From contig JAXMAA010000002.1 of assembly GCA_046350615.1 (NCBI GenBank), positions 213,204 to 277,203 of the forward strand: 64,000 nt of DNA, given 5' to 3'. Positions 1 through 53,399 of the stretch are shown piece after piece. The position numbers were made by a program, and so were the translations under genes. Within the stretch, counting starts at the first letter, position 1; every line of letters starts with the position of its first letter. Below the pieces are notes generated by a model. It was not told the origin of the DNA, searched no databases, and saw only the letters and a program-made list of their open reading frames with translations. The stretch comes from Candidatus Saccharimonadales bacterium (lineage in GTDB: Bacteria; Patescibacteriota; Saccharimonadia; Saccharimonadales; UBA7683).

Positions 1-1
1 T

Positions 2-724
2 CGACATTTGCTTGATTTTATTGACTTGCACTATCCAAATCAGCTGAAAGGTTTGCTCGAGCCACCGTTCCCGGAGATACTTTTGTTAATTGAGTTTGAT
101 GATCTGGGTGGCAGCGTTCAGCAGAAAAAGGTTAAGAAGTTGCTGAAGATACTCGGGCGAGTAACGCAAGATTATCAGGTAACAACCGACTATGATGAGC
201 GCGACGAGCTTTGGAAGATCCGCCATTCCGCTGCGGCGGTTATTGCGCACTCAGAAGGTACTAAAAAAGCACTGCCGATTATTGAAGATGGTATTGTGCC
301 GCAAGAAAACTTTACAAAGTTTATCCACGGTATTTATGCATTGTTTAAAAAATACAATCTTGACGTTGCTGTTTGGGGTCACGCTGGCAATGCAAACGTT
401 CATTTACAGCCGTTCTTAGATTTGAGCAGCGTGGGTGATAGGCAAAAAGTCTTTAAGATTATGGACGAATACTATGATATGGTGCTCCAGCTTGGCGGTT
501 CAACAGCGGCTGAACATAACGACGGCCGCCTGAGAGCGCCTTATTTGCCACAGCTTTATGGGCCTGAGATGTATAAAATATTTGAGGCCACTAAGAAGAT
601 CTTTGATCCACATGGCATCTTAAACCCTGGTGTTAAACTTGGCGTTACTAAAGAGGACCAACTCCGTGAGCTACGACACGAATATAATATGGACCAACTT
701 GGCCATCACCTGCCTCGATCATAA
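2..724 (+). CDS. FAD-linked oxidase C-terminal domain protein (GlcD / D-lactate dehydrogenase family), 5' end cut by window edge
   Basis: Frame is open from the window start to TAA at 722-724. WGHAGNANVHLQPF, AEHNDGRLRAPY and FDPHGILNPG are conserved C-terminal blocks of FAD-linked oxidases. Confidence 0.75.
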   Translation, partial: RHLLDFIDLHYPNQLKGLLEPPFPEILLLIEFDDLGGSVQQKKVKKLLKILGRVTQDYQVTTDYDERDELWKIRHSAAAVIAHSEGTKKALPIIEDGIVPQENFTKFIHGIYALFKKYNLDVAVWGHAGNANVHLQPFLDLSSVGDRQKVFKIMDEYYDMVLQLGGSTAAEHNDGRLRAPYLPQLYGPEMYKIFEATKKIFDPHGILNPGVKLGVTKEDQLRELRHEYNMDQLGHHLPRS

Positions 725-770
725 GACAGTTCTTATTGATGGCGCTGAAAAGTAAACTGAAATCAAAAAC

Positions 771-794
771 AAAAGACCAAAGAATGGTCTTTTG
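771..794. terminator. Bidirectional hairpin terminator between the oxidase gene and the tRNA pair
   Basis: AAAAGACCA-aagaa-TGGTCTTTT, with an A-tract on one side and a T-tract on the other. Confidence 0.5.
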
Positions 795-807
795 TAGTTT
801 ACAAATC

Positions 808-885
808 TGGGGCGAATGATGGGTTTCGAACCCACGACCTTCGGAACCACAACCCGACGCTCTAACCAACTGAGCTACATTCGCC
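808..885 (-). tRNA. tRNA-His (GTG)
   Basis: Hand-folded cloverleaf: G-1 plus acceptor GCGAATG/CATTCGC, anticodon loop TTGTGGT, discriminator C, encoded CCA. Confidence 0.9.
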
Positions 886-888
886 ACA

Positions 889-977
889 TGGTGCACGAGA
901 GAGGACTTGAACCTCCAAGCTCTAAAGCGAGCACTAGCCCCTCAAGCTAGCGTGTTTACCAATTTCACCACTCGTGC
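889..977 (-). tRNA. tRNA-Leu (GAG), class II
   Basis: Acceptor GCACGAG/CTCGTGC, anticodon loop TTGAGGG, long variable arm GCTC..GAGC, T-loop TTCAAGT, encoded CCA. It lies 3 nt upstream of tRNA-His. Confidence 0.9.
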
Positions 978-1632
978 AGGACTGAATAATTGTACCATCT
1001 TGATCTTGAATAATGAAGTCTTCTAACTTCTTTCGTTTGCGTGGTAAAAAGTAGAATCCAGCATGTGAATACATGGCTTCATGCAGCAGGTAACTATCTT
1101 TTTTGGCGTAAGCAAGAATGGATGCTTTTGCATTGTGCCGGATCGACCCGCCTTTTGTGCCAAGGACCCTACAGTTCATCTCCTTAAGGTAGGTGAGAAA
1201 CTCTTTGCTGGCGCTGCAGATACCAATATAATACATAAAGCTATTCTTCCACCTCTGGTCGTGATACGCATACACCGTGCCATCTCCATCAAAAACGCCT
1301 CTTAAAAAATCAGGGTAATAAGCATCAGGAATGCGTAGTGATCCGAGAGTGTGGCTTTTGGCGGGCGTAAGTCCAGCGGCAAGGAGAAAATCGTAATAGG
1401 CAACATCGCTTAATTGAACCCGGTAGCTTTCTTGACCCATGCCATTGAACTTAGGCTTAATTACGAGGTTTTTTTCTAGAGCCTGCGAGAAGTTGGAGAG
1501 CTGAATAGTATCCTTGGAGGTGAGGTCAATATGCCGGCCATCTTTTTGCAGACAGCCATCGCTAGCAATGAGGCCAACAGAGTAAGCGATTGGTCCAGAC
1601 CAAGAATAAGTACGCTTTTTTGCATATCTCAT
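934..1632 (-). CDS. LAGLIDADG-family homing endonuclease (two-motif, free-standing)
   Basis: 232-aa ORF with GLIASDGCL and LRGVFDGDGTV motifs. The last 44 nt and the stop codon lie inside tRNA-Leu(GAG). Confidence 0.8.
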   Translation of the reverse strand: MRYAKKRTYSWSGPIAYSVGLIASDGCLQKDGRHIDLTSKDTIQLSNFSQALEKNLVIKPKFNGMGQESYRVQLSDVAYYDFLLAAGLTPAKSHTLGSLRIPDAYYPDFLRGVFDGDGTVYAYHDQRWKNSFMYYIGICSASKEFLTYLKEMNCRVLGTKGGSIRHNAKASILAYAKKDSYLLHEAMYSHAGFYFLPRKRKKLEDFIIQDQDGTIIQSCTSGEIGKHASLRG

Positions 1633-1655
1633 AGTGTTTAGTATACCAAATATAC

Positions 1656-1684
1656 TTGAATTGTTTCATTTTTTGCTGTATATT
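1656..1684 (+). promoter_or_regulatory. Sigma70-like promoter for tRNA-Val
   Basis: TTGAAT-17 nt-TATATT, ending 15 nt before the mature tRNA 5' end. Confidence 0.5.
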
Positions 1685-1699
1685 GTACGATGTTCATAT

Positions 1700-1776
1700 G
1701 GGTGATTAGCTCAGTTGGCTAGAGCATCTCGTTTACACCGAGAGGGTCGGGGGTTCGAGTCCCTCATCACCCACCA
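1700..1776 (+). tRNA. tRNA-Val (TAC)
   Basis: Acceptor GGGTGAT/ATCACCC, anticodon loop TTTACAC, T-loop TTCGAGT, encoded CCA. Confidence 0.9.
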
Positions 1777-1958
1777 AGTTAAGGATCCTACGAAAGTAGG
1801 ATTTTTAACTTGATGATGGGGCGAGAACCCAACAGCGAAGCTGGGGTTCGATAGCAAGGAGCTCACGCAGAAGCTAGCTTCGAGTAAGTGACGTAGATAT
1901 ACAAAGTAGTCCCTCATCACCCACCAAGTTAAGGATCCTACGAAAGTAGGATTTTTAA
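1758..1958 (+). repeat. 51-bp perfect direct repeat (1758-1808 and 1908-1958) covering the tRNA-Val 3' end plus terminator, separated by 99 bp
   Basis: Identical strings AGTCCCTCATCACCCACCAAGTTAAGGATCCTACGAAAGTAGGATTTTTAA at an offset of exactly 150 bp. Confidence 0.9.
1785..1806 (+). terminator. Intrinsic terminator after tRNA-Val (second identical copy at 1935-1956)
   Basis: ATCCTAC-gaaa-GTAGGAT followed by TTTT. Confidence 0.7.
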
Positions 1959-2077
1959 TTTTCACAGAAGAGCATCACCGTTAGTGGGATTTTAGTTGAT
2001 GAAGCTAGCTCTTGGCTGATTTTTGTAATTTGGTATAGTATAAATTTATAAAGAGAAATAAGGAGAGTTGAGGAACC

Positions 2078-2737
2078 ATGAAGTATAAACATCAAGATCA
2101 GGGTGGCTTTGCAGTAGTCGGTATTATTATCGCTGTTCTTGCAGTGCTTGTAGTTGCAGGTGTGGCGGTGTTTTTCGTTCGTAATAATGCAACGCAGTCA
2201 ACATCGGAAAATGAATCCACAACCGCGTCGTCGTCAAGCCCCGATTTTGCACCAAAGTCAACAGATGGCGCTTCGTACGTGGCTACATTACATGGCACGG
2301 CAGGCGATTCAACAATTGAGGCAACAATTGACTACAACGGGAGGGGTGATAGCCACTATGTCGGCACGGTGAACGGTCAGCCAACCGAAATGTACAAAAT
2401 TGGCAGTGAGTACATCGTATGTAGTGGTGCACAGTGTATTAGCGCTCCAACTACCAGCCAGCCAGCTGGTAGTGGCCAAGCGCAATATAGTGCGGAAGAT
2501 GTTGCTACCTGGAAGAGCGCAGCTACCTATAAAGGTAAGCAAGACTGTCCGGCTGGTAGCTGCAGCGCATGGCAAGTAGCAAAAGATGGGTATACCGGCA
2601 CCATTTTGGTTGCACAGGATGGTCGTGTTAGTCGTACCGTCTGGACGAACGACAGAGGCACTTTCACAATAGATCTCGATTACAAAGAGGTAACAATTGC
2701 ACGCCCAGATAACGTCATGAGTGTACCAGGTAGATAA
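2078..2737 (+). CDS. Membrane-anchored secreted protein, function unknown
   Basis: AGGAG RBS. N-terminal hydrophobic helix (FAVVGIIIAVLAVLVVAGVAVFFV) followed by a Ser/Thr-rich linker. Confidence 0.6.
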   Translation: MKYKHQDQGGFAVVGIIIAVLAVLVVAGVAVFFVRNNATQSTSENESTTASSSSPDFAPKSTDGASYVATLHGTAGDSTIEATIDYNGRGDSHYVGTVNGQPTEMYKIGSEYIVCSGAQCISAPTTSQPAGSGQAQYSAEDVATWKSAATYKGKQDCPAGSCSAWQVAKDGYTGTILVAQDGRVSRTVWTNDRGTFTIDLDYKEVTIARPDNVMSVPGR

Positions 2738-2757
2738 CCAGGGCGCACTAGCCCATA

Positions 2758-2850
2758 TCTCAAAACCCTGTCTGTCATCTGCCGTGGCGGATCCATTGAT
2801 TTACTAGATTCCCGATCGGAGTCGGGAATGATGACCTTGGGGTTTTGAGA
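2758..2850 (+). repeat. Nested inverted-repeat structure (three stems) in an intergenic region
   Basis: TCTCAAAACCC (2758-2768) pairs with GGGTTTTGAGA (2840-2850). GTCATC (2774-2779) pairs with GATGAC (2830-2835). Inner hairpin ATTCCCGA/TCGGGAAT at 2808-2829. Confidence 0.6.
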
Positions 2851-2866
2851 GTCAAGTTGCAAAGTA

Positions 2867-2895
2867 TTGACAAGCATAAGCTTTATTGCTATAAT
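2867..2895 (+). promoter_or_regulatory. Consensus sigma70-type promoter
   Basis: TTGACA-17 nt-TATAAT exact consensus, upstream of the SPFH gene. Confidence 0.6.
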
Positions 2896-3005
2896 TGTAA
2901 TATTCCCTTGCTCGTTATGGGCAAAATTACTCGGCACATTACAAAAAATTAGGTTTGACCGTCTTCTGGTTCTGCTATACTGTAAACAGATATAAAGGAG
3001 GGTTT

Positions 3006-3773
3006 ATGGAGGCATTGGCAGGATTATTCGGGTTAGGGTTTATCTTAGTTATTTTTGTGGGTATCCCACTACTACTGAGTGGTATACGGATTATTAATCA
3101 GTACGAGCGCGGTATTGTGTTTACACTCGGAAAGTTTTCAAGCCTCAGGAACCCAGGGTTGAATATTATTATTCCCATTGTGCAAACAATGCGTAAAGTT
3201 GATGTACGTTCCACGCCGGTTGATGTGCCAAAACAAGAGGTCATTACCAAAGATAACGTAACTGTTGGCGTTGATGCTGTGGTATATTTTCGTGTCATAG
3301 ATCCAGCCAAGGCGGTGCTTGAAACCACAAATTATACCTATGCCACTGCTCAGTTTGCACAGGCGGCGCTCAGAGATGTAGTGGGTAACGTAGAGCTTGA
3401 TGAACTGCTCTCAAAGCGTGAGGAAATTAGTGTGCAGATCAAGACGATTGTTGATTCTCAAACAGATCAGTGGGGGATTGATGTAGAGAACGTCAAGATT
3501 CAGAACATCGAATTGCCGCAAGATATGAAACGCGCCATGGCAAAACAGGCCGAAGCCGAGCGCGAGCGTCGAGCAGTAATTATCAATGCTGAGGGAGAGA
3601 AGGCTGCGGCGCAGCAAGTTGCAGAGGCGGCGGGCATGTTGGCAAAAACTCCTGGTGGCGTTACAATTCGTACTCTACAAACCCTTGAAAAAATATCATC
3701 AGAACCCAGTCAGAAAACGGTTTTTGTTATCCCTTCAGATATTGCTGGGGCTATCAGTAAATTTGTTAAATAA
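3006..3773 (+). CDS. SPFH/band-7 (stomatin-prohibitin) family membrane protein
   Basis: AAAGGAGGG RBS before ATG at 3006. N-terminal TM helix, then YERGIVFTLGKF...VITKDNVTVGVDAVVYFRV, typical of the SPFH domain. Confidence 0.85.
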   Translation: MEALAGLFGLGFILVIFVGIPLLLSGIRIINQYERGIVFTLGKFSSLRNPGLNIIIPIVQTMRKVDVRSTPVDVPKQEVITKDNVTVGVDAVVYFRVIDPAKAVLETTNYTYATAQFAQAALRDVVGNVELDELLSKREEISVQIKTIVDSQTDQWGIDVENVKIQNIELPQDMKRAMAKQAEAERERRAVIINAEGEKAAAQQVAEAAGMLAKTPGGVTIRTLQTLEKISSEPSQKTVFVIPSDIAGAISKFVK

Positions 3774-3816
3774 GGTTGAAAAAAAACCGGCTATCAGATA
3801 TGATATACGGGTTCGC

Positions 3817-3892
3817 GGCTCTTTAGCTCAGTTGGTAGAGCAGAGGCCTGAAGAGCCTTGTGTCCCCAGTTCGAGTCTGGGAGGAGCCACCA
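3817..3892 (+). tRNA. tRNA-Phe (GAA)
   Basis: Acceptor GGCTCTT/AGGAGCC, anticodon loop CTGAAGA, T-loop TTCGAGT, encoded CCA. Confidence 0.92.
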
Positions 3893-3943
3893 CGAACACC
3901 TTGAACACATAGAATTACTGCGATATAATTCACAGGTTCATGC

Positions 3944-4019
3944 GCGGGTATAGCTCAGTTGTTAGAGCGCTTCCTTGCCAAGGAAGAGGCCAGGAGTTAG
4001 AGTCTCCTTACCCGCACCA
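3944..4019 (+). tRNA. tRNA-Gly (GCC)
   Basis: Acceptor GCGGGTA/TACCCGC, anticodon loop TTGCCAA, T-loop TTAGAGT, encoded CCA. Confidence 0.9.
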
Positions 4020-5501
4020 AATATCGGAATTAGAGCCTGAAAGGGCTTTTTTCTTTGTCTCAACAATGGTCTTAAAGGGGTCGTTGAGTATATAAGACAA
4101 CCTTTTGTCCTTCAATTCAATGTTTGAAAGTACATATTCCAACAACTTCTGACGAAGCCCGTCGTCGCTCTCTTTGAATAGCTGTTCTGCTCGCTGTGCC
4201 AAGTCTAACAGATAGGAAGTAGTGACCTGGAAGTTCTTATTATCGCTTGTTAGCAACTTTAGACGGTCATTCAATTCTTGCTGCCGCTTTTCTAAGTCAT
4301 TTGCAATTTCATCATGGAAAGTCTGTGTAATACGTCCTTCAAGTAGGTCATAGTAGATTTTACGCATCTTTTCTTTCATCTTGTCGTATTCAATGCGAGT
4401 TTGCTCTATATTCTGAGTGAAGTAGGTTTGCTGGTCATCATGGCGATTGCGTAGCTCGTTAATGACCTTGCTGAGCCACTCTTCTGGAATATCTATGAAG
4501 CTAATATCAGAATTGATACCATCAACCACAAGACTTTCGGCAGTGTTTGGATTGCTGCATTTATTGTTTGCACAACGTAGGTAGACGGTATGGCGAGCCT
4601 TGAAAGGTGAGACGGCACGACCACATTGACCGCACTTCACAATTTTCTTAAAGGTATAGTCTCTACTGTCATACTTGGTCTTCTCATGCTTACGCTCATC
4701 ACGCACCTGCTGCACCTGATTAAACAATGAGCGGCTAATAAGTGGCTCATATTTATGAGGATAGCGTCTGCCAGCATGAACCATGAAGCCACAATAAAAT
4801 TCGTTGCTTAGTATTCTTTCAAGAAACGCCTTGTTTGGAGCTTTGCTATTGGCAACGTTACTTCGGAAGCCCATCTTACCTAGTTCCTTAGCAATGACGG
4901 CATAGGAAACACCTCTTGCTCTCATCTCAAATGCTTTCACGATGTAGTGGGCTTTTGCGGTATCAACCTCTATTGTTTTATCGGGCTTTTTGTCTGTGCC
5001 GTTGTTAACGTTATTGTAGCCGATAGGTGCACGATGTACCCAAATGCCATCGTTCAGCATCTGCTCAAAACGACGCTTTACATTATCTCTACTGGTATCT
5101 GAGTAGTATTTGGCAAGTAGCATACCAATACCTAATCTAAACAAATCAGTAGCTGGCGAGTTTTTAGTGATGAACAGGTTGTCGGAAGGGAAGTGCATTT
5201 CAATTTTGCCTTCTTCAACGAGCTTACCCATTATCCGTACTTCTCGCTGAGAAGCATCTCTCGTAAATCGGTCAATTTTATCAAAGACCACGATAGCAGG
5301 ATGTTTGAGTGCTGCTATCTTCTCAACTAACTCAGAGAACTTGCGACGAGCGTCTTTATACGCACTCTCATCAAACTCATAGTATTTGGAAGGCAACCCT
5401 TTTTCTTTTGCGTATTGTTCTAGCCTCAGCTTCTGTGCTGGCAAGGCTTTACGCTGTTCAACGTCTGATACTCTTGCGATTAAGATTACTTTTTGTTCCA
5501 T
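4008..5501 (-). CDS. Large serine recombinase (integrase)
   Basis: N-terminal resolvase domain with the catalytic Ser context ILIARVSDVEQ, a recombinase domain, a Zn-ribbon (CGQCGRAVSP...LRCANNKC) and a coiled-coil tail. 497 aa. Confidence 0.9.
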   Translation of the reverse strand: MEQKVILIARVSDVEQRKALPAQKLRLEQYAKEKGLPSKYYEFDESAYKDARRKFSELVEKIAALKHPAIVVFDKIDRFTRDASQREVRIMGKLVEEGKIEMHFPSDNLFITKNSPATDLFRLGIGMLLAKYYSDTSRDNVKRRFEQMLNDGIWVHRAPIGYNNVNNGTDKKPDKTIEVDTAKAHYIVKAFEMRARGVSYAVIAKELGKMGFRSNVANSKAPNKAFLERILSNEFYCGFMVHAGRRYPHKYEPLISRSLFNQVQQVRDERKHEKTKYDSRDYTFKKIVKCGQCGRAVSPFKARHTVYLRCANNKCSNPNTAESLVVDGINSDISFIDIPEEWLSKVINELRNRHDDQQTYFTQNIEQTRIEYDKMKEKMRKIYYDLLEGRITQTFHDEIANDLEKRQQELNDRLKLLTSDNKNFQVTTSYLLDLAQRAEQLFKESDDGLRQKLLEYVLSNIELKDKRLSYILNDPFKTIVETKKKALSGSNSDIWCG

Positions 5502-5527
5502 AGTATTTACTCCTTATTAACTTAACA

Positions 5528-6694
5528 TTACTTAACAGTATTTTCAATGTTTAATAGAAACTCTGACATGCGTGTTGGTGCAAATCGCTGCAAGGCTTCA
5601 TCTATGTGAATAAAGGCAGTGAAGCGATGTGCATCAGGTGCTTTAAGCAGTGGTTTGATGCGATACCATGCTTGTTTGCCATAGCGAGCTTCAAGTGTAT
5701 TCCTTAGACCAACCGCACCTGTCTGGCTGGTAATTAGCAGCCCAGCAACTGCTGCTAATGCAGCTTGTGGGGTCACATCATCGTTTGCTTCTAGGTAGTT
5801 TTGAAAAAGCTCGTACGGCTCTTTTACATCCAGTGCTAACATATCAACGTTTGCAGTTAGCTTATTCCAGTGTTTCAGCAGAACATCTTGGCACAACTTC
5901 TTTTTGAAAAGTGTTTCAAATGTCCATTGCTTTAACTCTGAATAAGCTCGTTTGATTGAGGCTCTACCGACAAAACGAACTTCATACCTGAATACGTCCA
6001 TTGGTCGGTATTCAGATAAACCTTCAAGCAGGTTGAGCTGTATGGAGCTATCTTTTTCTAATGCTCGTTTACTGCTCTTCTTTGCTTTTAAAAGGTCAGC
6101 CATTTTGTCGTAAAAGGCTATATCAAGCGAGTTGGCGTGAATATGCACAACATGACCGTCACGAAAATCAGTCTTCTGAAAGTCATATACTTTACTCACG
6201 TCTAGCTTACCCATCACATTAAGAACCGTCTGACATGACGTATAGTCAAGAAACACAATGTTCTTAGAGGGATGCCACGCCGAAACATTGGCATGAGCAA
6301 GCTGTGGCTTGAAAAACCTACGCCCCAATAACTCTTGCAAGGCATCTTGGAGTGCCGTCAAGAGAGGCTCAAAGTCGCTTTCAACTAACTCATCAAAGTT
6401 ATTACCGAACAACATCTTTGGTGCTGAAAACTCAACTGCTAGCTCAAACTCAACCTTGCCATAACCCTTTACACGCTTGTACATAGTTAGGCGAGGCATG
6501 TACCTGCCTATCTTTGCGTATGTAGGCGAAGGATTAAGGAAGGTTTTACCGTAGCCCCTGCTATTAACGAGCTGTTCAAGCGTCATTGGCGAGAACCTGC
6601 TACCGTCAAACAGCAAGGGGTCATGTACTGGGATGAGCAGTTTTACTGTGTCTACCATAGTTTTCATCACTTCTTTCAAGGCTACTGTCGGCAA
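5528..6694 (-). CDS. Hypothetical protein, possibly a phage/plasmid replication initiator (gpII/CRI-like)
   Basis: 388-aa ORF in the mobile-element context. The resemblance of the N-terminus (DTVKLLIP...) to Rep families is by eye only. Confidence 0.35.
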   Translation of the reverse strand: MPTVALKEVMKTMVDTVKLLIPVHDPLLFDGSRFSPMTLEQLVNSRGYGKTFLNPSPTYAKIGRYMPRLTMYKRVKGYGKVEFELAVEFSAPKMLFGNNFDELVESDFEPLLTALQDALQELLGRRFFKPQLAHANVSAWHPSKNIVFLDYTSCQTVLNVMGKLDVSKVYDFQKTDFRDGHVVHIHANSLDIAFYDKMADLLKAKKSSKRALEKDSSIQLNLLEGLSEYRPMDVFRYEVRFVGRASIKRAYSELKQWTFETLFKKKLCQDVLLKHWNKLTANVDMLALDVKEPYELFQNYLEANDDVTPQAALAAVAGLLITSQTGAVGLRNTLEARYGKQAWYRIKPLLKAPDAHRFTAFIHIDEALQRFAPTRMSEFLLNIENTVK

Positions 6695-6947
6695 ACAGCT
6701 CCCTCATCTTTTCAACGATTGCTTTTTCAATGGCTTGCCCAGCCTCTTTTGTTATCGGATGACAAATGTGCATCTGACGATTACCAACTTTTTTGGTTGG
6801 ATAGACTATACGGTAACCTGTACCATCCAACAGACTATGTAAGCCGATTGAGCCTAGATACAAGCTGCCGTCTATTACACAGCTAGCAAATGCCACTAAA
6901 CTGCCGTTTGTTTTAACAGGCGTTATGTTTACTTCACTTACGACCAT
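6621..6947 (-). CDS. spoVG: SpoVG-family DNA/RNA-binding protein
   Basis: MVVSEVNITPVKTNGSLVAFASCVIDGSLYLGSIGLH...YRIVYPTKK...HICHPITKEAGQAIEKAI follows the SpoVG pattern. The start was chosen at the internal Met. Confidence 0.65.
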   Translation of the reverse strand: MVVSEVNITPVKTNGSLVAFASCVIDGSLYLGSIGLHSLLDGTGYRIVYPTKKVGNRQMHICHPITKEAGQAIEKAIVEKMRELFADSSLERSDENYGRHSKTAHPST

Positions 6948-7012
6948 CTTTTTTACGCTCCTCTGCCGCACGATAACGATTGTTAGCCCATAGCCACAGC
7001 GACATGAGCCAA

Positions 7013-7225
7013 TCAATCAGCTTCCGTAGGGATACTTGGATTATCTGGTAAACCTTTACCATCTTCTTCGCTCCTTTCATTACGTTGTTTTTGCTTCTGT
7101 GCAAAGTCCATCTGAATAAGCACATCAAAGAAACCGACCAAGTTACGAACTGCTGGTTCGCTTAGTTCTTGTAGCGGCTCGTTCGTAGCCTTCTTTTGTT
7201 GGTGATTATTCTGGTTGCCTTCCAC
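7013..7225 (-). CDS. Small hypothetical protein
   Basis: 70-aa ORF co-oriented with its neighbours. No recognisable motif. Confidence 0.3.
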   Translation of the reverse strand: MEGNQNNHQQKKATNEPLQELSEPAVRNLVGFFDVLIQMDFAQKQKQRNERSEEDGKGLPDNPSIPTEAD

Positions 7226-7284
7226 AATATCAATTAAAGAAAATGGCTCATTTAAGCCATTTAAATCTGTGGATAAGTCAGGTT

Positions 7285-8481
7285 TTACAGATTGAGATAT
7301 TCTGGATTTACATAAACCTCAATACCATCTAGAACAAAGAAATTGGGCATCGTGTTGTTGGTATAACGAACGATTTTGTTGTTAAGTTGGTGGATATAAC
7401 TTCTGATTTTTACAATCCAATCTTGCTCATCATCTGCAATTCTTTCGCCAAATGCCTCAAAAATAACTTCTTCAATATCCCAATGCTTTGTGACGCTCTC
7501 AGGTGAACTGAGCAATACACGAGCAAACTGGGTTTGTTTGGAGCTGACACTTACAGAAACCCTGAACTTACCAATCTGAATTGATGAGCTTGTACGCTGA
7601 AAGTGAACTGCTGACGGTGATAGAAGTAACTGACCTTGCTGGTTGTTCTTTGTGAGTATTTGCTTCAATTCTCGTACTTCCTGCTTCAAGTCATTGAAAG
7701 CCAAGAACATACTGGCATTATCTATGAAGCCCACGTTGCCTATGCTACTGACCTGTTGAGTGGTAGCGGTAGCGGTTACACTGTTTTCGTCAGCCGCAAC
7801 GTCTTCAACGGCAAAATCTACCGTTTCGTAATTACCAAACTCAATACTTGCCCGAAGCGAACCAACATCAATTTGCAAACCATGCTTTACACGTTCATGT
7901 GTTGAGTGAAAATCCGCAAACATCGTGCGAGCTATAAAAGGTGCTTGAAAAATATCCTGGATGCTTTTAATTGCGGCTATGATGTTTTGAGTTGGATAGT
8001 TGATTGCTATGGACTTTTGCATAGCAGCAAGAGCCGTAAATTGGTTCTGAGTAAAGATACTGCTCTTGTAAATGGCTTCTATCGCAGGCTTCATGGCTTC
8101 CTGTAAACCAAACGCCCTATCCAATGCAGGCTGCACAGCAAGGGTGGTCTTCTGCAAATCAGATATGACTTTAAGCATGGGCGAAACGTCTATTTTTTGA
8201 AGCGATTGGAAAGCAGGAGATATTTTATATACGCTCTGTATCGCACTGGTGATAGCGGTCATATCATAGTGGCTTCTAACGCTTTCGGCTGCCCTAACAA
8301 GCTGTTTATGAGCTTCGGTTAACTGCTCCTGCTCACGCTTCGTAAGTGTTAAACGGTCTTTTGCACTCAGTTTCTTATATTCGCCGAACGTTAAAGAAGA
8401 ACCTTTGTTTTTAGATTTAATCTCATCAAGGTTTATAACTATTGGCTTATCTGACTGAGTTTTGTCGTCACTTTTCATCAC
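7285..8481 (-). CDS. Hypothetical protein (398 aa)
   Basis: Long uninterrupted ORF in the element. No family recognised. Confidence 0.55.
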   Translation of the reverse strand: MMKSDDKTQSDKPIVINLDEIKSKNKGSSLTFGEYKKLSAKDRLTLTKREQEQLTEAHKQLVRAAESVRSHYDMTAITSAIQSVYKISPAFQSLQKIDVSPMLKVISDLQKTTLAVQPALDRAFGLQEAMKPAIEAIYKSSIFTQNQFTALAAMQKSIAINYPTQNIIAAIKSIQDIFQAPFIARTMFADFHSTHERVKHGLQIDVGSLRASIEFGNYETVDFAVEDVAADENSVTATATTQQVSSIGNVGFIDNASMFLAFNDLKQEVRELKQILTKNNQQGQLLLSPSAVHFQRTSSSIQIGKFRVSVSVSSKQTQFARVLLSSPESVTKHWDIEEVIFEAFGERIADDEQDWIVKIRSYIHQLNNKIVRYTNNTMPNFFVLDGIEVYVNPEYLNL

Positions 8482-8520
8482 TTCACTCTCACGTTTTGTT
8501 AAGTCGTGTATAGTTATAGT

Positions 8521-8712
8521 ATGACACAGGAACAGAGAAAGCAGCCAAAACTACTAACGCTCCGACAGGCGTGTGAGCTGCTGAATTGCCATCCGAACAC
8601 ACTTAGGGCATGGGACAAAAGTGGCTACCTGGTAGCGGTACGGATTGGAACACGCCGTGACAGGCGATACCGCAGAGAAGATGTGATGAAGATTTTAAAG
8701 AAAAATGGCTAG
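8521..8712 (+). CDS. MerR/excisionase-type helix-turn-helix protein (candidate recombination directionality factor)
   Basis: LLTLRQACELLNCHPNTLRAWDKSGYL...RRYRREDV matches the HTH_17/Xis pattern. It is divergent from the recombinase arm. Confidence 0.7.
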   Translation: MTQEQRKQPKLLTLRQACELLNCHPNTLRAWDKSGYLVAVRIGTRRDRRYRREDVMKILKKNG

Positions 8713-9193
8713 CTCAAATCAGGAAGAATTAGACAAGCGAACATCCGCACGTGGCTTATTAAACTATGCGATGGAGTATTACGCTGGGTATGAGCTTATA
8801 CAGAAACAAGAACCAAACATGACACGCTACTTTGCAGTGAAGTATTACCTACTCTGTCATTCACTTGAATTAACCATGAAGGCTTGGTTAAAGCACAAGG
8901 GTGCGAACTACGCAGAAATTAAAAGCATGGGGCATGACCTTGAAAAAATCATGGTAGTTCTACATGACAGGCATGACCTACTCTTCGATGCACCCAGTCA
9001 AGCTATGATTAGCCTTGTAAATCAGCATTATGCAAAGAAGGAGTTTGAGTACGCACTTAGGGGTGCAAAAAGCGTACCTGTAATTACCGACCTTGCACAA
9101 ACAGTTCACTTACTTATCTCAAAAGCTCGCTTTGATATTTTGATGGACGGCGACCCACAAAAGCTAAGGGCAGCAGGCAATGTCGAAAAGTGA
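8705..9193 (+). CDS. HEPN-like domain protein
   Basis: YYLLCHSLELTMKAWLKHKG....IKSMGHDLEKI resembles the HEPN helix pair with the xHDL motif. The 3' end overlaps the next gene by 14 nt. Confidence 0.5.
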   Translation: MASSNQEELDKRTSARGLLNYAMEYYAGYELIQKQEPNMTRYFAVKYYLLCHSLELTMKAWLKHKGANYAEIKSMGHDLEKIMVVLHDRHDLLFDAPSQAMISLVNQHYAKKEFEYALRGAKSVPVITDLAQTVHLLISKARFDILMDGDPQKLRAAGNVEK

Positions 9194-10118
9194 CCCTAAG
9201 ACTGTATGGGAAGCAGGTAAAGATAAGTATTACGAACATTATCGTCTTTCTAAATCTGCAACGTCTGCTGAGCTACGAAAATGGGTTGATGAAGCCTACT
9301 ACAAAAACGGACTTTGCCAATACCTTGATAAGAACTTTACCCATGAACTAAGAGATAACGATTTTTACGCTCGGCTTTGGGAGCTTGAAGTGGCTGAGTG
9401 GTTAGAAAAAACAGGTATTAAAATGTTGCCCACTAACGGCAAGGGATTTGATTTTTGTCTTGAACTGCCAGATGGCAAGAAAATCTGGATTGAAGCCGTC
9501 CTGGCTACCGAGGATGATGAGCTGAAAGAGATACAACGCCAAGCATTACAGTCAGGTGCGGTATTCAATACGCCACGAGAACAGTTTGCACTGAGATATT
9601 CTTCGGTGCTTTTTACTAAGGCGACCAAGATAAAAGAAAAATATCTACAAGATGTTGGTAAAGATGACTTTACCCTAATTGCTGTTTCTGGCTATCCGAT
9701 GAGTATGATGGGTTCAAGCATGGACTTATTTATGCTTGGTATCTTGCCGATTGACTTTCAAGTTGTGCATATCTCAACTGACGGCAAACCACTTGACCCA
9801 AATGTTCCAAGACCAACCCACACCATGAAGCAGTCGTATCAGAAGAAAACTGGTGCATCAGTCAAAAAGGAGTTTTTGTATCCAGGCACTCATTTTCCAT
9901 TTATAGATGGGGTCATGTTCTCAGAAGCCTCAAACCTGCAACAACTACTCGGTACTGGTTCGGCGAGCTTTAACGAAGAAACAAACTGCCCACATATCTT
10001 TGAGAATTATGTGGGCAAGAGTTTGCCAGAAGACTTTACTAAATTTTTCTATTGCCACAGCTTCAAAGACAGTGGCAACATGGCTAGTCTAGAAATGAAA
10101 GAACCTACTGTAAAGTAA
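9180..10118 (+). CDS. Hypothetical protein, possible PD-(D/E)xK-like nuclease fold
   Basis: 312-aa ORF. The segment WELEVAEWLEKTG...GKGFDFCLEL...IWIEAVL resembles an E..D..E core but lacks the canonical Lys. Confidence 0.45.
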   Translation: MSKSDPKTVWEAGKDKYYEHYRLSKSATSAELRKWVDEAYYKNGLCQYLDKNFTHELRDNDFYARLWELEVAEWLEKTGIKMLPTNGKGFDFCLELPDGKKIWIEAVLATEDDELKEIQRQALQSGAVFNTPREQFALRYSSVLFTKATKIKEKYLQDVGKDDFTLIAVSGYPMSMMGSSMDLFMLGILPIDFQVVHISTDGKPLDPNVPRPTHTMKQSYQKKTGASVKKEFLYPGTHFPFIDGVMFSEASNLQQLLGTGSASFNEETNCPHIFENYVGKSLPEDFTKFFYCHSFKDSGNMASLEMKEPTVK

Positions 10119-10653
10119 CTTTTACGCCGCCTGAGAACGCACTGTCATGCAGTTCAGCAGTTGCTGGTGTCTGATCTTTTGGAAGGTCAAAGACGATAGC
10201 ACCCTCAACACTGTTACCTGGATTTATGTCGTTATACCAGCTCGTGCCGTTTGGAGCATTGTAAAGAGTAGCCGTATCATCAGCCGAATACTTTTGACCA
10301 CTCGCATTGAGCAGGTATTGATTGCTGGAAACGAGACTTTGAGCCTGGTCGCCGATATTCTTTACACTTACATTGAGCAAGCAATACTGACCTTGTGCTG
10401 TCTTTGTAAGATATTGGTTAGAGCCAACTGATGTTTTACCACATTCAACACTCTTAACCGTAAACTCAAATTTACCATCATTAGCAGGTTGCCCAACCTT
10501 AGCCGTTTCGGCTTTACTTGATGAACTGCTAGATGAGCTGTTGCTCGTGCTGTTATTTGATTTACTACCGCCCCCTGCCGCCGAGACGATTATTCCGAGA
10601 AGAATAAGACCGCCGATTATTGATAGTATTTTGTGCTTTTTGAACCACTGCAT
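10105..10653 (-). CDS. DUF4352 domain membrane-anchored protein
   Basis: N-terminal TM helix, a Ser-rich linker, then FEFTVKSVECGK...YCLLNVSVKNIGDQAQ...GAIVFDLPKD, typical of DUF4352. Confidence 0.75.
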   Translation of the reverse strand: MQWFKKHKILSIIGGLILLGIIVSAAGGGSKSNNSTSNSSSSSSSSKAETAKVGQPANDGKFEFTVKSVECGKTSVGSNQYLTKTAQGQYCLLNVSVKNIGDQAQSLVSSNQYLLNASGQKYSADDTATLYNAPNGTSWYNDINPGNSVEGAIVFDLPKDQTPATAELHDSAFSGGVKVTLQ

Positions 10654-10712
10654 TTTATAAACTCCTTGTTTAAGTTACCTCTTATCAATATAACTTAACA
10701 ATACTAAAAAAT

Positions 10713-10741
10713 AAACAGTTAGTTTATGTAACTATCTGTTT
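10713..10741 (+). promoter_or_regulatory. Operator-like inverted repeat abutting the -10 box of the XRE gene
   Basis: AAACAGTTAGTT-tatgt-AACTATCTGTTT (11 of 12 positions symmetric), immediately followed by TATAAT at 10741-10746. Confidence 0.5.
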
Positions 10742-10761
10742 ATAATTTCTACCCTTAGTGT

Positions 10762-10989
10762 ATGGGTAATACACAAGAACAAAATATGATGAAAGCCTTT
10801 GGCAAGCGAGTGGCAGAAGTTCGCAAAAGCAAAGGTGTAACTCAACAAGAATTAGCCGAAAGCGTAAACATGAGCGTAGTCGCTATCGCTTATATTGAAA
10901 CTGGTAAGCGATGGGCTAGGCTTGGCACGCTGAGCAAAATTGCTAAAAGTCTTAAAGTTGATGTTGCTGACCTGTTTAAGGGCTTATAA
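10762..10989 (+). CDS. XRE-family helix-turn-helix transcriptional regulator
   Basis: FGKRVAEVRKSKGVTQQELAESVNMSVVAIAYIETGKR is a classic HTH_3 motif. Confidence 0.8.
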   Translation: MGNTQEQNMMKAFGKRVAEVRKSKGVTQQELAESVNMSVVAIAYIETGKRWARLGTLSKIAKSLKVDVADLFKGL

Positions 10990-11128
10990 TACCGTCTGCC
11001 AAAACCGCTTGGTCAAATGAGAGCCGAAAATTCGCTACTTACACGGCGGAGTATAGTTTTTGTGAAACTAAGGGCGACTACCCCCTATCCAATGAGCAAC
11101 AACAATAATTATTTGCTATGATTGAGCT

Positions 11129-11884
11129 ATGAACAAAAACCCGCAGCAATTTTATGATGACTTAGCCGATAGTTATTCGCTTATTTTTCCTGACTGGCAG
11201 GCGGCAGTTGAACGACAAGCTAATGCGATTAGTAATTTAATCAGTCAACCTCCTCTTACAGTCTTGGACTGTTCTTGCGGTATAGGAACACAAGCTATTG
11301 GCTTAGCAAAACTAGGCTATAAAGTTCACGCAACAGATATCAGCCCCAAAGAAGTTGAAAAGGCAAAAGAGGCTTCTAAAAAGATGGGAGTTAATCTCAG
11401 TTTTGGCGTTGCAGATTTTCGTACCCTAGATAGCCAAGTTGAAGGTGAATATGATGTAGTTATCTCGTTTGATAACTCATTGCCGCATCTATTAACCAAC
11501 GAAGATATAGTGAAAGCACTTAATGCTATGAAAGCGAAGCTGGTAGATGGGGGTAAGCTACTCATAAGTATTCGTGATTATGATGTTCTGCTTGAAGAAA
11601 AGCCGAAAGCTACGTTGCCCCAAGTTATGCAGACAGAGAACGGCGAAACAATATATTTTCAAACGTGGCAATGGGATGATAATTTACCAACCTACCAAAC
11701 AAATCTTTTTATCCTTGTGCCTGAAAACGGTAGCTGGAAAGTAACTACTTCTTCAACCACTTACAGGGCATTGAGAAAAAATGAGCTGACTGAGTTGCTG
11801 GAAAAGTCTGGCTATAAAAATGTTGAATGGCTTGAATCACAGCAAAGCGGTTATTATCAGCCGATTGTTACAGCAACTAAATAG
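11129..11884 (+). CDS. Class I SAM-dependent methyltransferase
   Basis: Motif I VLDCSCGIGTQA and an acidic post-I residue (HATDIS). Confidence 0.85.
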   Translation: MNKNPQQFYDDLADSYSLIFPDWQAAVERQANAISNLISQPPLTVLDCSCGIGTQAIGLAKLGYKVHATDISPKEVEKAKEASKKMGVNLSFGVADFRTLDSQVEGEYDVVISFDNSLPHLLTNEDIVKALNAMKAKLVDGGKLLISIRDYDVLLEEKPKATLPQVMQTENGETIYFQTWQWDDNLPTYQTNLFILVPENGSWKVTTSSTTYRALRKNELTELLEKSGYKNVEWLESQQSGYYQPIVTATK

Positions 11885-11934
11885 ATACTATTTTAATAAC
11901 TGGTCAGATAGATTAAAGATGCTAGCTAGATGCC

Positions 11935-12000
11935 TTAGCTTATAATCCTCTTCTGCACTAATAGCTGCCGTTTGAAATACGTCAACTATCCTGCACCATG
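11935..12000 (+). repeat. Copy 1 of a 66-nt conserved intergenic element (candidate sRNA or leader)
   Basis: Ungapped 52/66 identity to 12625-12690 at an offset of exactly 690 bp. It begins with TATAAT and is followed by a hairpin plus T-run. Confidence 0.6.
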
Positions 12001-12003
12001 AAA

Positions 12004-12028
12004 GCTTCAACGTTGTTGATGCTTTTTT
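12004..12028. terminator. Hairpin terminator (bidirectional) between the methyltransferase and kinase genes
   Basis: GCTTCAAC-gtt-GTTGATGC followed by TTTTTT. Confidence 0.5.
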
Positions 12029-12029
12029 A

Positions 12030-12551
12030 TTAGTCTAATTCTTCTAGCTTTTTAATTAACTCATCAATGTCAGTGTCAGGCTTAAATACAACAATTTCCT
12101 CATCACTAGCTGGGTTTTCCCATACCTTATAGACCTTTTCAAGGTTCACAGAGCTTACATCGTGTCGCTGTTTAGTAATCAAGTTATCAGCTCGCCTTTT
12201 CTGGGTTACTTCAAGCGGAATATCTAAATAGATAATGGCAGACCGTACACCTGCTTCCCTGGCTACTCTTCGGAGGTTATCTCGATCTTCTACCGTGTGA
12301 TTGATGTGGTCAAAAACAACAGATTTACCTTTTGCTAGTTCATCTTCTATATCTTGATAGACTATGTCCAGCACTTCATTCCATTCCTCAACATTATCAA
12401 GTTCAGGTACTTGCTCTGGTGGTTTTACTCTTGCCCATGTCCAATCATATGCGAGCAATTTTGCATCAAGCCTATCGGCAACCTTCTGTGCTAACGTTGT
12501 CTTGCCTGAAAATGGCAATCCAAACATAGATACCAATATTGGTTTTTTCAT
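12030..12551 (-). CDS. P-loop kinase / AAA_33-like ATP-binding protein
   Basis: Walker A GLPFSGKTT near the N-terminus. 173 aa. Confidence 0.75.
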   Translation of the reverse strand: MKKPILVSMFGLPFSGKTTLAQKVADRLDAKLLAYDWTWARVKPPEQVPELDNVEEWNEVLDIVYQDIEDELAKGKSVVFDHINHTVEDRDNLRRVAREAGVRSAIIYLDIPLEVTQKRRADNLITKQRHDVSSVNLEKVYKVWENPASDEEIVVFKPDTDIDELIKKLEELD

Positions 12552-12624
12552 AAAGTTATTGTATCAAATCAGGGAATAAGTTAAAGTAGCTCGCCCGATA
12601 GTTGAAATTGTTCAGCAAGATATT

Positions 12625-12690
12625 TTAGTTTATAATCTCCTTGTACATTAGTAGCTGTCGTTTGAAACGAGTCAACTATTCTGCACCAGT
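12625..12690 (+). repeat. Copy 2 of the 66-nt conserved intergenic element
   Basis: See copy 1. TTGTTC-17 nt-TATAAT promoter-like context, upstream of the DUF1428 gene. Confidence 0.6.
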
Positions 12691-12709
12691 AGACTCATTT
12701 TCAAACATT

Positions 12710-12738
12710 AGAGACCATAGAGGTCTCTTCGTGTTTTT
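12710..12738 (+). terminator. Possible leader terminator or attenuator upstream of the DUF1428 gene
   Basis: AGAGACC-ataga-GGTCTCT, then tcgtg and TTTTT. The T-run is offset by 5 nt. Confidence 0.4.
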
Positions 12739-12815
12739 GGACGCCTGGACGCCCCTTTGCCTTCTATTGAGTGGTAGAATTATAGAAGGCGTAATTTTAA
12801 AGAGGAGTGTGTAAA

Positions 12816-13196
12816 ATGGCGAAATATGTTGATGGTTTTGTGCTGGTGGTTCCAAGGGGTAAAGAGACGGAATATCAAAAGATGGCGGAGATGGGGCGAG
12901 ATTCATGGATGAGGCATGGTGCGCTGCAGTACTTCGAATGTCGGGGTGATGATTTGAAGCCGCAAGAGGCGGGTGATGAAAAATCGCGAGCTTTTGATGA
13001 AATGGTTGGTGCGGGCGCAGACGAAAATGTCTGGTTCTCGTTTATTATTTTTGAATCAAAAGAGCATCGGGATGAGGTGAATGCAAAAGTTATGCAAGAA
13101 ATGGGCGAAGCATATGCAGATCAAACTGATTTTGAGATGCCAACCGACATGAAGAAAATGGCATATGGTGGTTTCGAGGTAGCGGTCGAGGGATAA
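12816..13196 (+). CDS. DUF1428 domain protein
   Basis: MAKYVDGFVLVVPRGKETEYQKMAE...FECRGDDL matches the DUF1428 pattern. GAGGAG RBS. Confidence 0.75.
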   Translation: MAKYVDGFVLVVPRGKETEYQKMAEMGRDSWMRHGALQYFECRGDDLKPQEAGDEKSRAFDEMVGAGADENVWFSFIIFESKEHRDEVNAKVMQEMGEAYADQTDFEMPTDMKKMAYGGFEVAVEG

Positions 13197-14025: not shown

Positions 14026-14099
14026 GGCGCCTTGGCCGAGAAGTTAGGCACTGGTCTGCAAAACCAGTTAGACGGGAGCGTTACCCGTAGGTGCCTCCA
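14026..14099 (+). tRNA. tRNA-Cys (GCA) with non-canonical D- and T-loops
   Basis: Acceptor GGCGCCT/AGGTGCC, anticodon loop CTGCAAA, discriminator T (U73), encoded CCA. T-loop is AGCGTTA instead of TTCRANY and the D-loop lacks GG. TGtTATAAT lies 12 nt upstream. Confidence 0.7.
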
Positions 14100-52203: not shown

Positions 52204-52219
52204 GGAAAGCAAATCTATT

Positions 52220-52531: not shown

Positions 52532-52640
52532 GACTAGATACTCCTTGTATATTGTGTACATTTCAACCTGCGATAATATTAGCATAAACACTACTATTAT
52601 GCCTACGTGGTGCAATCGCAAATAGTGGTATAATTTCTAC

Positions 52641-53087: not shown

Positions 53088-53101
53088 TTTTAACCTACAG
53101 G

Positions 53102-53359: not shown

Positions 53360-53399
53360 AACTCTATCTTAACAGAAGCAGGTACTAAGGTCATAAAAA

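Follow-up and report, generated by a model that had tools for sequence, protein, structure and literature searches.

We analysed a window of 64,000 nucleotides from a Candidatus Saccharimonadales bacterium (assembly GCA_046350615.1, contig JAXMAA010000002.1, positions 213,204 to 277,203), in which a tRNA-Gly(GCC) gene adjoins a cluster of genes including one for a large serine recombinase (LSR). The window was placed in Saccharibacteria because relatives of the flanking Band_7 protein (64-86% identical) were found in 80 species-representative genomes, almost all of them metagenome-assembled genomes of this group. An initial annotation, made from the sequence alone, had proposed a serine-recombinase integrative element at the tRNA-Gly gene with plasmid- or phage-like cargo, perhaps a small plasmid-like element; the comparisons described here support such an element, with plasmid-like rather than phage-like content. 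The element covers window positions 4020-11998 (7,979 bp), or up to 12688 if an older appended remnant of 690 bp is counted; the span to 10989 assumed initially was too short.

The region differs in base composition from its surroundings, with a GC content of 0.40-0.43 across 4001-13000 and 0.45-0.49 to either side. Related genomes carry a pair of tRNA-Phe and tRNA-Gly genes followed by varied content, and the empty tRNA-Gly sites that had been suggested as a check are indeed present in relatives (L004, L069 and L077). L-numbers denote compared loci or contigs, P-numbers denote LSR homologue proteins, and p388 is the protein of 388 amino acids (aa). Attachment (att) sites are named attB in the host, attP in the free element and attL and attR at the two junctions. 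The features at the centre of the analysis are:

3944-4019, plus strand: host tRNA-Gly(GCC), intact after integration, B arm of attL (ARAGORN; Rfam tRNA, 71.9 bits)
4008-5501, minus strand: LSR gene in its integrated, truncated 497-aa form (Pfam, PHROG, conserved catalytic residues)
4014-4019: GCACCA core of attL, the sole block common to attL, attR, attP and attB (junction comparison)
4020-4057, plus strand: P' arm of the element, with a terminator-like hairpin (4032-4049) and T-run
5528-6694, minus strand: putative rolling-circle replication initiator p388, a distant G2P/Phage_CRI relative (AlphaFold2 (AF2) fold; Pfam matches of relatives)
11897-11998, minus strand: inner attR, P arm with a detached LSR tail (WCRIVDVFQTAAISAEEDYKLRHLASIFNLSDQLLK, then stop); GCACCA at 11993-11998
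12587-12688, minus strand: outer attR, second tail-coding P arm (WCRIVDSFQTTATNVQGDYKLKYLAEQFQLSGELL, then stop); GCACCA core at 12683-12688
12689-12738, plus strand: host B' flank with the original tRNA terminator (hairpin 12710-12728 and T-run)

The recombinase gene and its attachment sites

The 497-aa LSR open reading frame (ORF) had been described as ending inside the last 12 nt of tRNA-Gly(GCC), and the ARAGORN and ORF coordinates agree on an overlap of exactly these 12 nt. The ORF closes with ...SNSDIWCG, followed by a TAA stop that corresponds to TTA at 4008-4010 on the opposite strand, within the T-arm of the tRNA. This overlap is not a chance arrangement, because it recurs in L016, L061 and L067. 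The protein matches the Pfam families Resolvase (PF00239, 3e-15), Recombinase (PF07508, 8.9e-14) and zinc ribbon (PF13408, 1.8e-4; at 22.3 bits slightly below the 25.3 cutoff) as well as the integrase family phrog_95 (6e-61). Among 40 aligned homologues, R10 and Q16 are invariant, and S12, D13, D74, D77, R78, R81 and D82 are nearly so, as are the zinc-ribbon cysteines C291, C294, C311 and C316. A clearly degenerate recombinase had been named as evidence against the proposal; the alignment instead reveals conserved catalytic motifs (R-V-S-D-x-x-Q and DKIDRFTRD) along with the four cysteines. An AF2 model of the homologue P0004 displays catalytic, recombinase, zinc-ribbon and coiled-coil domains, with long paired helices at 341-420. 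The closest NCBIfam match is CcrA (1.5e-16, far below the cutoff). Sequence searches of the PDB returned only a resolvase-like N-terminus (E 3.5e-4) and nothing useful, and a look-up of the exact window protein gave no record.

No direct repeat of the tRNA 3' end was found downstream, which fits a serine recombinase; attR was recognised instead via a direct repeat of about 102 nt and its homology to L067. The two copies (11897-11998 and 12587-12688) are 73% identical and both end in CTGCACCA, while tRNA-Gly ends in CCCGCACCA; no further copy occurs within the 64-kb window. The right end, which had initially been left undefined, is thus given by attR-type junctions at 11998 and 12688. The tail encoded by the inner copy is 85% identical to that of the sister contig L086, compared to 79% for the outer copy, and we therefore take 4020-11998 as the current element and the inner attR as its cognate right end. 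Host synteny (DUF1428) resumes at ~12770.

All four types of site were found in other species (a slash marks the junction). The unoccupied attB of L069 reads ...CCCGCACCA/ATAAAATTGCCCCAG and the attP of L082 reads ...CTGCACCA/AACATTTGAATTATGAGCC. In L067, attL consists of the tRNA joined to AATGTTTGAATTATGAGCC, and attR reads ...CTGCACCA/ATAAAATTGCCCCAG, that is, a homologous 102-nt block followed by the sequence found directly 3' of tRNA-Gly in L069. LSR contigs without the tRNA (L082-L085) join the 102-nt block to the post-tRNA sequence of occupied sites (...GTCAACTATGCTGCACCA/AACATTTGAATTATGAGCCGAAAGGCTCTTTTTCTTTG), and the right side of the window attL is identical to the right side of the L086 attP. 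This quartet shares only GCACCA(A), the tRNA's own last bases, which places the crossover within the last six bases of the tRNA, at window 4014-4019. Judged from sequence, these are LSR-type sites: they are short, share few central bases and come with recombinant attL and attR, both in the set of L069, L082 and L067 and in the window with L086. A dyad-symmetry scan gave the same best centre in attP and attB, the CA of G-CA-CCA at 4015-4016, with a weak signal (9-12/24 versus ~6 expected); the 2-bp crossover is probably this CA. The predicted attP of the window is CAACTATCCTGCACCA/AATATCGGAATTAG, and its predicted attB is TTACCCGCACCA/TGAAAGC or TTACCCGCACCA/GTAGACTC. The initial annotation had put the junction just 3' of the tRNA and considered the ORF tail to be host-derived; the crossover lies in GCACCA instead, and the host provides at most three final codons and the stop.

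Read on the minus strand, both 102-nt blocks extend the LSR frame after ...IWC by 33-35 codons (RIVDSFQTTATNVQGDYKLKYLAEQFQLSGELL and RIVDVFQTAAISAEEDYKLRHLASIFNLSDQLLK, each followed by a stop), and joining 12688 to 4020 yields an LSR ORF of 529 aa. By this reconstruction, attP sits inside the LSR gene, 34 codons before its stop, and integration shortens the 529-aa enzyme to 497 aa. An unsplit counterpart is found in L086 (ENA ERZ28660125, 10,061 bp), which carries no tRNA and has an exact 55-nt terminal overlap, giving a circle of 10,006 bp. Read around this circle, its LSR comprises 529 aa, ends in ...DIWCKIVDVFQTAAINAQEDYKLKHLAEQFNLSSELI and carries the predicted attP. L086 is 95% identical to window 4014-7153 (LSR through the 70-aa protein) and 93% identical to window 10106-11125 (DUF4352 and XRE genes). 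The circular junction that had been proposed as a test was thus found in a sister contig, in a form that a tandem array would assemble alike. Five more contigs likewise have the LSR gene in one piece.

The same picture emerges from 516 LSR homologues in the protein database, which show three types of C-terminus. The first ends in ...WCG with the stop within the tRNA. The second continues through the antisense tRNA (...WCG(Y/L)(R/G)DSNPGPLPWQGSAL...) in hosts whose T-loops lack an in-frame stop, and the third is unsplit, with 530-538 aa and the same tail, on contigs without a tRNA (P0004, P0009, P0013, P0044 and P0084). Most homologues belong to the first two types. The 98% identical LSR P0001 (542 aa) adjoins a tRNA-Gly with a canonical GGTTCGAATCC T-loop, where the window has GAGTTAGAGTC, which suggests recent movement between hosts; P0087 enters a different antisense tRNA, one that ends in ...CCTGCCA, pointing to a change of target within the LSR family.

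The tail itself is under coding selection, as indicated by its stop-free frame and its differences per codon position. Across 16 copies of 34 codons, there were no in-frame stops versus 49 and 73 in the other two frames, and differences per site amounted to 0.40, 0.33 and 0.49 at codon positions 1, 2 and 3. Its consensus is WC(R/K)I(V/A)D-F(Q/L)T-x8-(Y/F)KL(K/R)-L---F(N/G)LS--L. Tail fragments also reveal how widespread these elements are: 14 fragments were detected in 12/39 sampled species with tRNA-Gly(GCC), all of them 0.5-6 kb 3' of the tRNA in the expected orientation and none elsewhere. Two intact elements (L016 and L061) raise the number of species with traces to 14/39, about a third.

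The LSR ORF crosses the hairpin and T-run at 4032-4057, and the P' arm on the minus strand encodes the LSR linker ...KKKALSGSNSDI. The initial annotation had correctly seen that the ORF reads through a terminator-like hairpin; it had, however, taken the hairpin for the tRNA's own terminator, whereas it belongs to the P' arm of the element and the original terminator lies at 12710-12738. A host origin of the hairpin is ruled out, since it occurs in tRNA-free attP contigs: identical or homologous P'-arm sequence stands 3' of GCACCA in L082-L086. Among relatives the stems differ (GAGCC/GGCTC, GGGTC/GACCC, AGAGCC/GGGCTT, CCCCAGCC/GTTGGGG), yet all of them pair (-9.7 to -16.8 kcal/mol) and all retain the TTTTTCTTTG run. 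One stretch of DNA (4020-4057) would accordingly serve as protein linker, recombination half-site and predicted replacement terminator of the tRNA. L042, at first considered a hairpin-bearing empty site, was reinterpreted as a 42-nt P'-arm scar.

Further repeats were observed around the tRNA-Gly site. In L040, ~70 nt of post-tRNA flank occur twice (11831-11900 and 12851-12920), after tRNA-Gly and after a tail fragment, which simple integration of attP into attB does not explain. Partial tRNA-Gly copies, sense and antisense, lie 50-250 nt 3' of the gene in L067 (19860-19959, including a 27-nt exact match to the tRNA-Gly 3' end), L069 (6440-6510), L077 (12824-12857), L047 and L040. A different element, of the tyrosine-integrase type, may have left them as scars at this hotspot.

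The 388-aa protein and the remaining genes

The initial annotation had called p388 Rep-like, and its relatives lead to the same assignment. The window protein has no match in Pfam, PHROG, NCBIfam or PADLOC, and its translation probably begins at Met10 (6667) or further downstream. An AF2 model based on 38 homologues is confident (pLDDT 81.6). Foldseek against the PDB yielded nothing significant, only weak TBP-like noise, and PDB sequence searches gave nothing useful. Comparison with the viral structure library BFVD gave eight matches with E<1e-3 (best 4e-8, probability 1.0, TM 0.42); the sole named one is an Inoviridae replication-associated protein G2P, and the remaining top matches are viral proteins without a name. 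Searching 1.84 billion representatives with a profile returned 1033 clusters at 50% identity (E<=1e-3), nearly all of ~370-390 aa, and those members with an organism named in the source stem from Saccharibacteria or Patescibacteria. Among the divergent relatives, 11/42 match Pfam Phage_CRI (PF05144, the G2P N-terminal domain; best 5.8e-7), and a single one (1/42) matches Rep_trans (PF02486, E 0.026).

Invariant residues of the family include Y195 and K197 (FYDK) and the acidic D15, E102 and E238. This pattern fits a tyrosine nickase with Tyr195 as candidate nicking residue. An HUH motif (HVVHIH) was rejected as a hallmark of the family because H184 and H186 vary across the wider family. Overall, we consider p388 a putative, distant G2P-like rolling-circle initiator and not a member of a filed family. 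Scans of IMG/VR with p388, its alignment and the LSR alignment gave no relatives, and tblastn searches of PLSDB and INPHARED with p388 gave no match.

The other features of the locus are:

6621-7016, minus strand: SpoVG-like nucleic-acid-binding protein, core gene (Pfam SpoVG, 5.7e-9; also in L016, L061, L081 and L086)
7013-7225, minus strand: conserved 70-aa core protein (49-59% identical at the same position in L016, L061 and L081)
7285-8481, minus strand: 398-aa protein, variable position (52% identical copy in L016; a 536-aa protein instead in L086)
8506-8712, plus strand: small DNA-binding protein of HTH_17/MerR type, divergent from the core operon (Pfam, 2.2e-11; excisionase PHROGs)
8705-10118, plus strand: two cargo genes, 162 aa (8705-9193) and 312 aa (9180-10118), both absent from L086
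10105-10653, minus strand: membrane-anchored DUF4352 protein, phrog_806 (Pfam, 9.1e-30; PHROG, 1e-35; DNA 93% identical in L086)
10713-10741, between the DUF4352 and XRE genes: palindrome AAACAGTTAGTT-N5-AACTATCTGTTT (11/12), candidate operator
10762-10989, plus strand: XRE-family (HTH_3) regulator (Pfam, 8e-14)
11129-11884, plus strand: S-adenosylmethionine-dependent methyltransferase, last cargo gene (Methyltransf_25, 5.6e-17; PADLOC mad2, 2.6e-20)
11999-12586, minus strand: appended segment of 0.6 kb; hairpin terminator at 12000-12030, AAA_33 kinase-like gene at 12030-12551

Pfam agrees with the SpoVG, helix-turn-helix (MerR/HTH_17), DUF4352 and XRE (HTH_3) assignments made at the outset, and the palindromic operator candidate upstream of the XRE gene can be read in the sequence. 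The pair of genes at 8705-9193 and 9180-10118 had been described as HEPN-like, for which no match appeared even at E<=5; the 312-aa protein weakly resembles the defence candidates PD-T7-1 and PD-T7-5. For the SpoVG-like protein, gene callers give a form of 108 aa. The 398-aa protein has no family match in Pfam (also at E<=5), PHROGs or NCBIfam, and an OmpR-type winged helix guessed by eye found no Pfam support even at E<=5. The HTH_17 protein is 78-89% identical in L061 and L081 and is a candidate excision (directionality) factor or regulator. In agreement with the first reading, scans with Pfam, PHROGs and NCBIfam detected no capsid, terminase or conjugation families.

Elements with a 77-86% identical LSR and the same overlap at tRNA-Gly occur in L016, L061 and L067, the latter decayed with an LSR stub of 107 aa. 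They share the gene order LSR, 388-aa protein, SpoVG and 70-aa protein. More generally, L016, L061, L081 and L086 have a conserved core, in which genes for a large variable protein, the 70-aa protein, SpoVG, Rep and LSR lie on the same strand and HTH_17 is divergent. The non-core half varies even between 95% identical sisters: the window carries two unknown genes, a methyltransferase and a kinase, and L086 carries Ldh_2, DAO, UPF0020 and PNP. The cargo of L081 comprises an N6_N4 methylase, a ResIII helicase, a weak HEPN gene and DUF2779. L081 (JGI 3300056802 Ga0558084_0000348, 84,119 bp; locus 1-11733) has an unsplit LSR of 532 aa located 134 bp from the contig end; tandem copies, a large plasmid or an assembly that passed through the circular form could each account for this contig.

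The stretch 11999-12688 is either what remains of an earlier occupant or a flanked segment that lacks an integrase. Similar segments of 0.5-1.4 kb, also without an integrase, were found in L066 (15834-16525), L039 (11337-11903), L072 (12009-12589), L010 (9321-11209) and L040. Such short segments, which have GCACCA and a tail-coding block as their boundaries, may have arisen by deletion or may be units mobilised in trans.

Other LSR clades (22-27% identical) converge on tRNA-Gly, -Cys, -Phe, -Leu-GAG and -Leu-CAG (L037 14774-16386; L003 7225-8834; L034 10731-12391; L074 10820-12426; L012 3080-4524; L019 3992-5439; L066 25-1203). In 5/6 tested, the ORF enters the antisense tRNA; L012 is the exception, with its stop 47 nt short, and L066 lies outside the tested set. 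Within this phylum, tRNA 3' ends seem to be a recurrent location of serine integrases.

Elsewhere in the window, a LAGLIDADG_3 ORF of 232 aa (934-1632, minus strand) extends 44 nt into the same-strand tRNA-Leu(GAG) (889-977, minus strand). This pairing also occurs in two other Saccharibacteria genomes, L015 (7503-8239) and L032 (5183-5934), with 43-46% identity. A tRNA-Cys(GCA) at 14026-14099 was called by ARAGORN but is missing from the Rfam results at the gathering score; several relatives have a tRNA-Cys in the syntenic position. The GC content falls to 0.38-0.40 at 52000-54000 and 61000-62000, and the GC skew changes sign near 54 kb.

Proposed cycle and alternative explanations

The anatomy of the element, its quartet of att sites, the split gene with its unsplit circular counterpart and the relationship of the Rep are demonstrated by these comparisons. 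We consider it likely that the locus represents an integrated, probably still mobile plasmid-like element of Saccharibacteria with a split integrase, a G2P-like Rep, a cycle of excision and replication, and a core with exchangeable cargo. Its free form would be a circle with attP inside the 3' part of its own LSR gene. The 529-aa LSR, made from this circle, would join attP with attB, the 3' end of tRNA-Gly(GCC), at GCACCA. The tRNA would stay intact, and the element would provide a new hairpin terminator that is dual-coded with the LSR linker. The integrated copy would yield only the tail-less 497-aa LSR, the 33-35 tail codons being left at the far end as attR. Since the integrated copy makes only this 497-aa form, it would have to be the one that excises, presumably with the HTH_17 protein as directionality factor, and excision would restore the full-length gene. 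The phiRv1 serine integrase has a known directionality factor of the excisionase type. The G2P-like 388-aa protein would then initiate rolling-circle replication of the excised circle. Genes of the core operon (for the 398-aa protein, the 70-aa protein, SpoVG, Rep and LSR) would be kept, while regulators, a membrane protein, a methyltransferase and defence-like genes would form the exchangeable half. We infer the enzymology, the roles of the two isoforms and of the HTH_17 protein, replication and the route of cell-to-cell transfer from these features.

Several observations weigh against this reading. The window p388 reaches no Pfam model (PF05144 or PF02486 at gathering score), its assignment as Rep draws on relatives and on fold matches of modest TM (~0.42), and no origin or nick site was identified in the element. 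A scan of Joint Genome Institute (JGI) metagenome contigs for the window's own attB and attP junctions gave 0 matches, and excision of the window copy itself is something that we infer from sequence comparison. The circular-looking contig L086 can also stem from head-to-tail tandem chromosomal copies. In the AF2 model of the unsplit LSR, the tail forms two helices of low confidence (pLDDT 40-51) that provide no docking information. No tail fragment lies closer than 9 kb to the tRNA in L061. Finally, distant LSR clades at tRNA-Gly (L037, L003) read the junction in another frame, which confines the split-gene design to the LSR clade of the window rather than to all LSRs at tRNAs; the tail fragment near L037 is probably part of another, older element.

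Alternatively, the locus may be an integrative mobilizable element (IME), with p388 acting mainly as a conjugative relaxase like MOB_T of Firmicutes integrative and conjugative elements (ICEs) and with transfer via the chromosomal type IV secretion system (T4SS) found in most Patescibacteria. This would be compatible with rolling-circle replication, and it fits the size, the LSR and the absence of transfer genes. An integrase is present, T4SS genes are absent according to Pfam and PHROGs, and a relaxase role of p388 is conceivable. The one p388 relative that touches Rep_trans does so in the family of the MOB_T relaxases, and the nearly identical P0001 beside a tRNA-Gly with a different T-arm would suit recent host-to-host transfer. 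However, the Rep_trans match is single and weak, and no MOB family, coupling protein or origin of transfer (oriT) was detected. Moreover, Saccharibacteria are naturally competent, and transformation could move the element as well. The T4SS of Patescibacteria is regarded as co-opted for non-conjugative roles (PMC12102498, PMC12857230). On balance we see the IME explanation as possible, though rather unlikely.

A more far-reaching proposal is that the integration-driven gene split acts as a directionality switch, in which the 529-aa form integrates and the 497-aa form excises, and that the G2P-like family is the missing nickase or relaxase of Patescibacteria, tied to their nearly universal but relaxase-less T4SS. 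The p388 family is a candidate for such an enzyme; the combined proposal strikes us as speculative and improbable. If it were true, the main self-mobile DNA of Saccharibacteria would be defined, and a ready-made integration vector (LSR, attP, and attB at tRNA-Gly) would be at hand.

It is less probable still that the locus is an immobile relic, with an inactive truncated recombinase and repeats that are fossils of past integrations. The integrated LSR does lack its natural C-terminus, decayed elements exist at the same site elsewhere (the L067 stub and many orphan tail fragments), and the window itself has the appended remnant at 11999-12688. Against decay stand the intact core ORFs, 95% identical to the circular-assembling L086, as well as the conserved catalytic residues and two intact junctions; in the LSR clade as a whole, integrated copies are normally truncated.

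A prophage or phage satellite of the filamentous or micro-virus type, with single-stranded DNA, a G2P-like Rep and virion genes that are too divergent or supplied by a helper, is the least credible explanation: the Inoviridae G2P and unnamed viral proteins among the p388 fold matches, a genome size within the inovirus range, and prophage-like XRE/HTH regulators and DUF4352 protein (weak superinfection-exclusion PHROG matches) are outweighed by the absence of a Zot/pI-type morphogenesis ATPase, small hydrophobic coat protein, capsid and terminase from the ORFs at 4008-12688 (Pfam, PHROG, NCBIfam), by Rep and LSR families without relatives in IMG/VR and a Rep without any in INPHARED, and by a non-core half that differs between 95% identical sisters (Ldh_2, DAO and PNP in L086) in the manner of cargo, not of structural genes.

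Under the preferred reading of an integrated, plasmid-like element, the locus is of interest for several reasons. There are almost no descriptions of mobile elements from the candidate phyla radiation (CPR), and few genetic tools exist for these bacteria. A compact, delimited system consisting of an LSR, an attP of ~50 bp and an attB in a conserved tRNA is a potential integrating vector for competent, cultivable Saccharibacteria. A serine integrase with its own attP in the gene also provides a natural experiment on C-terminal extensions and directionality. Furthermore, the Rep family fills an annotation gap and bears on the question whether T4SSs of Patescibacteria ever move DNA (PMC12102498).

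Comparison with known systems

A literature search covering serine recombinases and integrases and LSRs at tRNA genes revealed no description of a serine integrase of this design and none of integrative elements of Saccharibacteria, and we know of no described LSR in which attP lies within the integrase gene. Elements with LSRs linked to tRNAs receive mention only in Prochlorococcus, where they make up a small minority of the integrative elements.

The window LSR resembles those of phages and ICEs (phiC31, Bxb1, TP901-1, A118, SPbeta, CcrA/B, TndX) in its domain order of Resolvase, Recombinase and zinc ribbon with a coiled-coil insertion, in its short att sites, which have a tiny core of identity and lack long direct repeats, and in the small accessory DNA-binding gene nearby. 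It differs from them in being very remote in sequence, in targeting a tRNA 3' end and in having attP inside the integrase ORF, so that integration alters the protein.

An attP within the int gene is known from SSV1-type archaeal integrases and from intP/intX of the Myxococcus phage Mx8, where integration into a tRNA gene splits the integrase or gives it a new tail. Here, too, the integrase coding sequence contains attP, a tRNA gene is targeted, and the integrated and free forms encode different proteins. Those enzymes, however, are tyrosine recombinases with long tRNA-identical cores, whereas the window encodes a serine recombinase with a core of 6-7 nt, detaches only the last 33-35 codons and resides in a CPR bacterium.

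In mycobacteriophages with integration-dependent immunity, the repressor gene contains attP, and the repressor loses a C-terminal degradation tag upon integration. The common principle is a site-specific integration that switches the C-terminus of a protein. There, the repressor is altered by means of a tyrosine integrase, whereas the tail ends of the window family (ELL, LLK, NLI, LLY, NIN) are neither tag-like nor conserved.

To G2P (Phage_CRI) and the pT181-type Rep_trans initiators, p388 has fold-level and weak profile similarity, and its own family has an invariant Tyr, a candidate catalytic residue, and the invariant acidic residues D15, E102 and E238. It differs from both in staying below every Pfam threshold and in belonging to a family that is linked to an LSR and not to virion genes.

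Firmicutes IMEs combine serine integrases with relaxases of the rolling-circle replication (RCR) type (Rep_trans/MOB_T) in 5-18 kb and undergo tandem accretion with cis-mobilizable elements (CIMEs). The window element is alike in size and in its combination of an integrase, an RCR-family nickase and variable cargo without a transfer apparatus; its internal att-like junction and the integrase-less flanked segment at 11999-12688 resemble accretion and CIMEs. It differs in that its Rep is G2P-like and not of a recognised MOB family and that its host belongs to another phylum, with mobilisation as a possibility. Taken together, the parts (serine integrase, rolling-circle Rep and IME-like layout) are all of known kinds, and their pattern is that of an integrative rolling-circle plasmid or an IME-like element.

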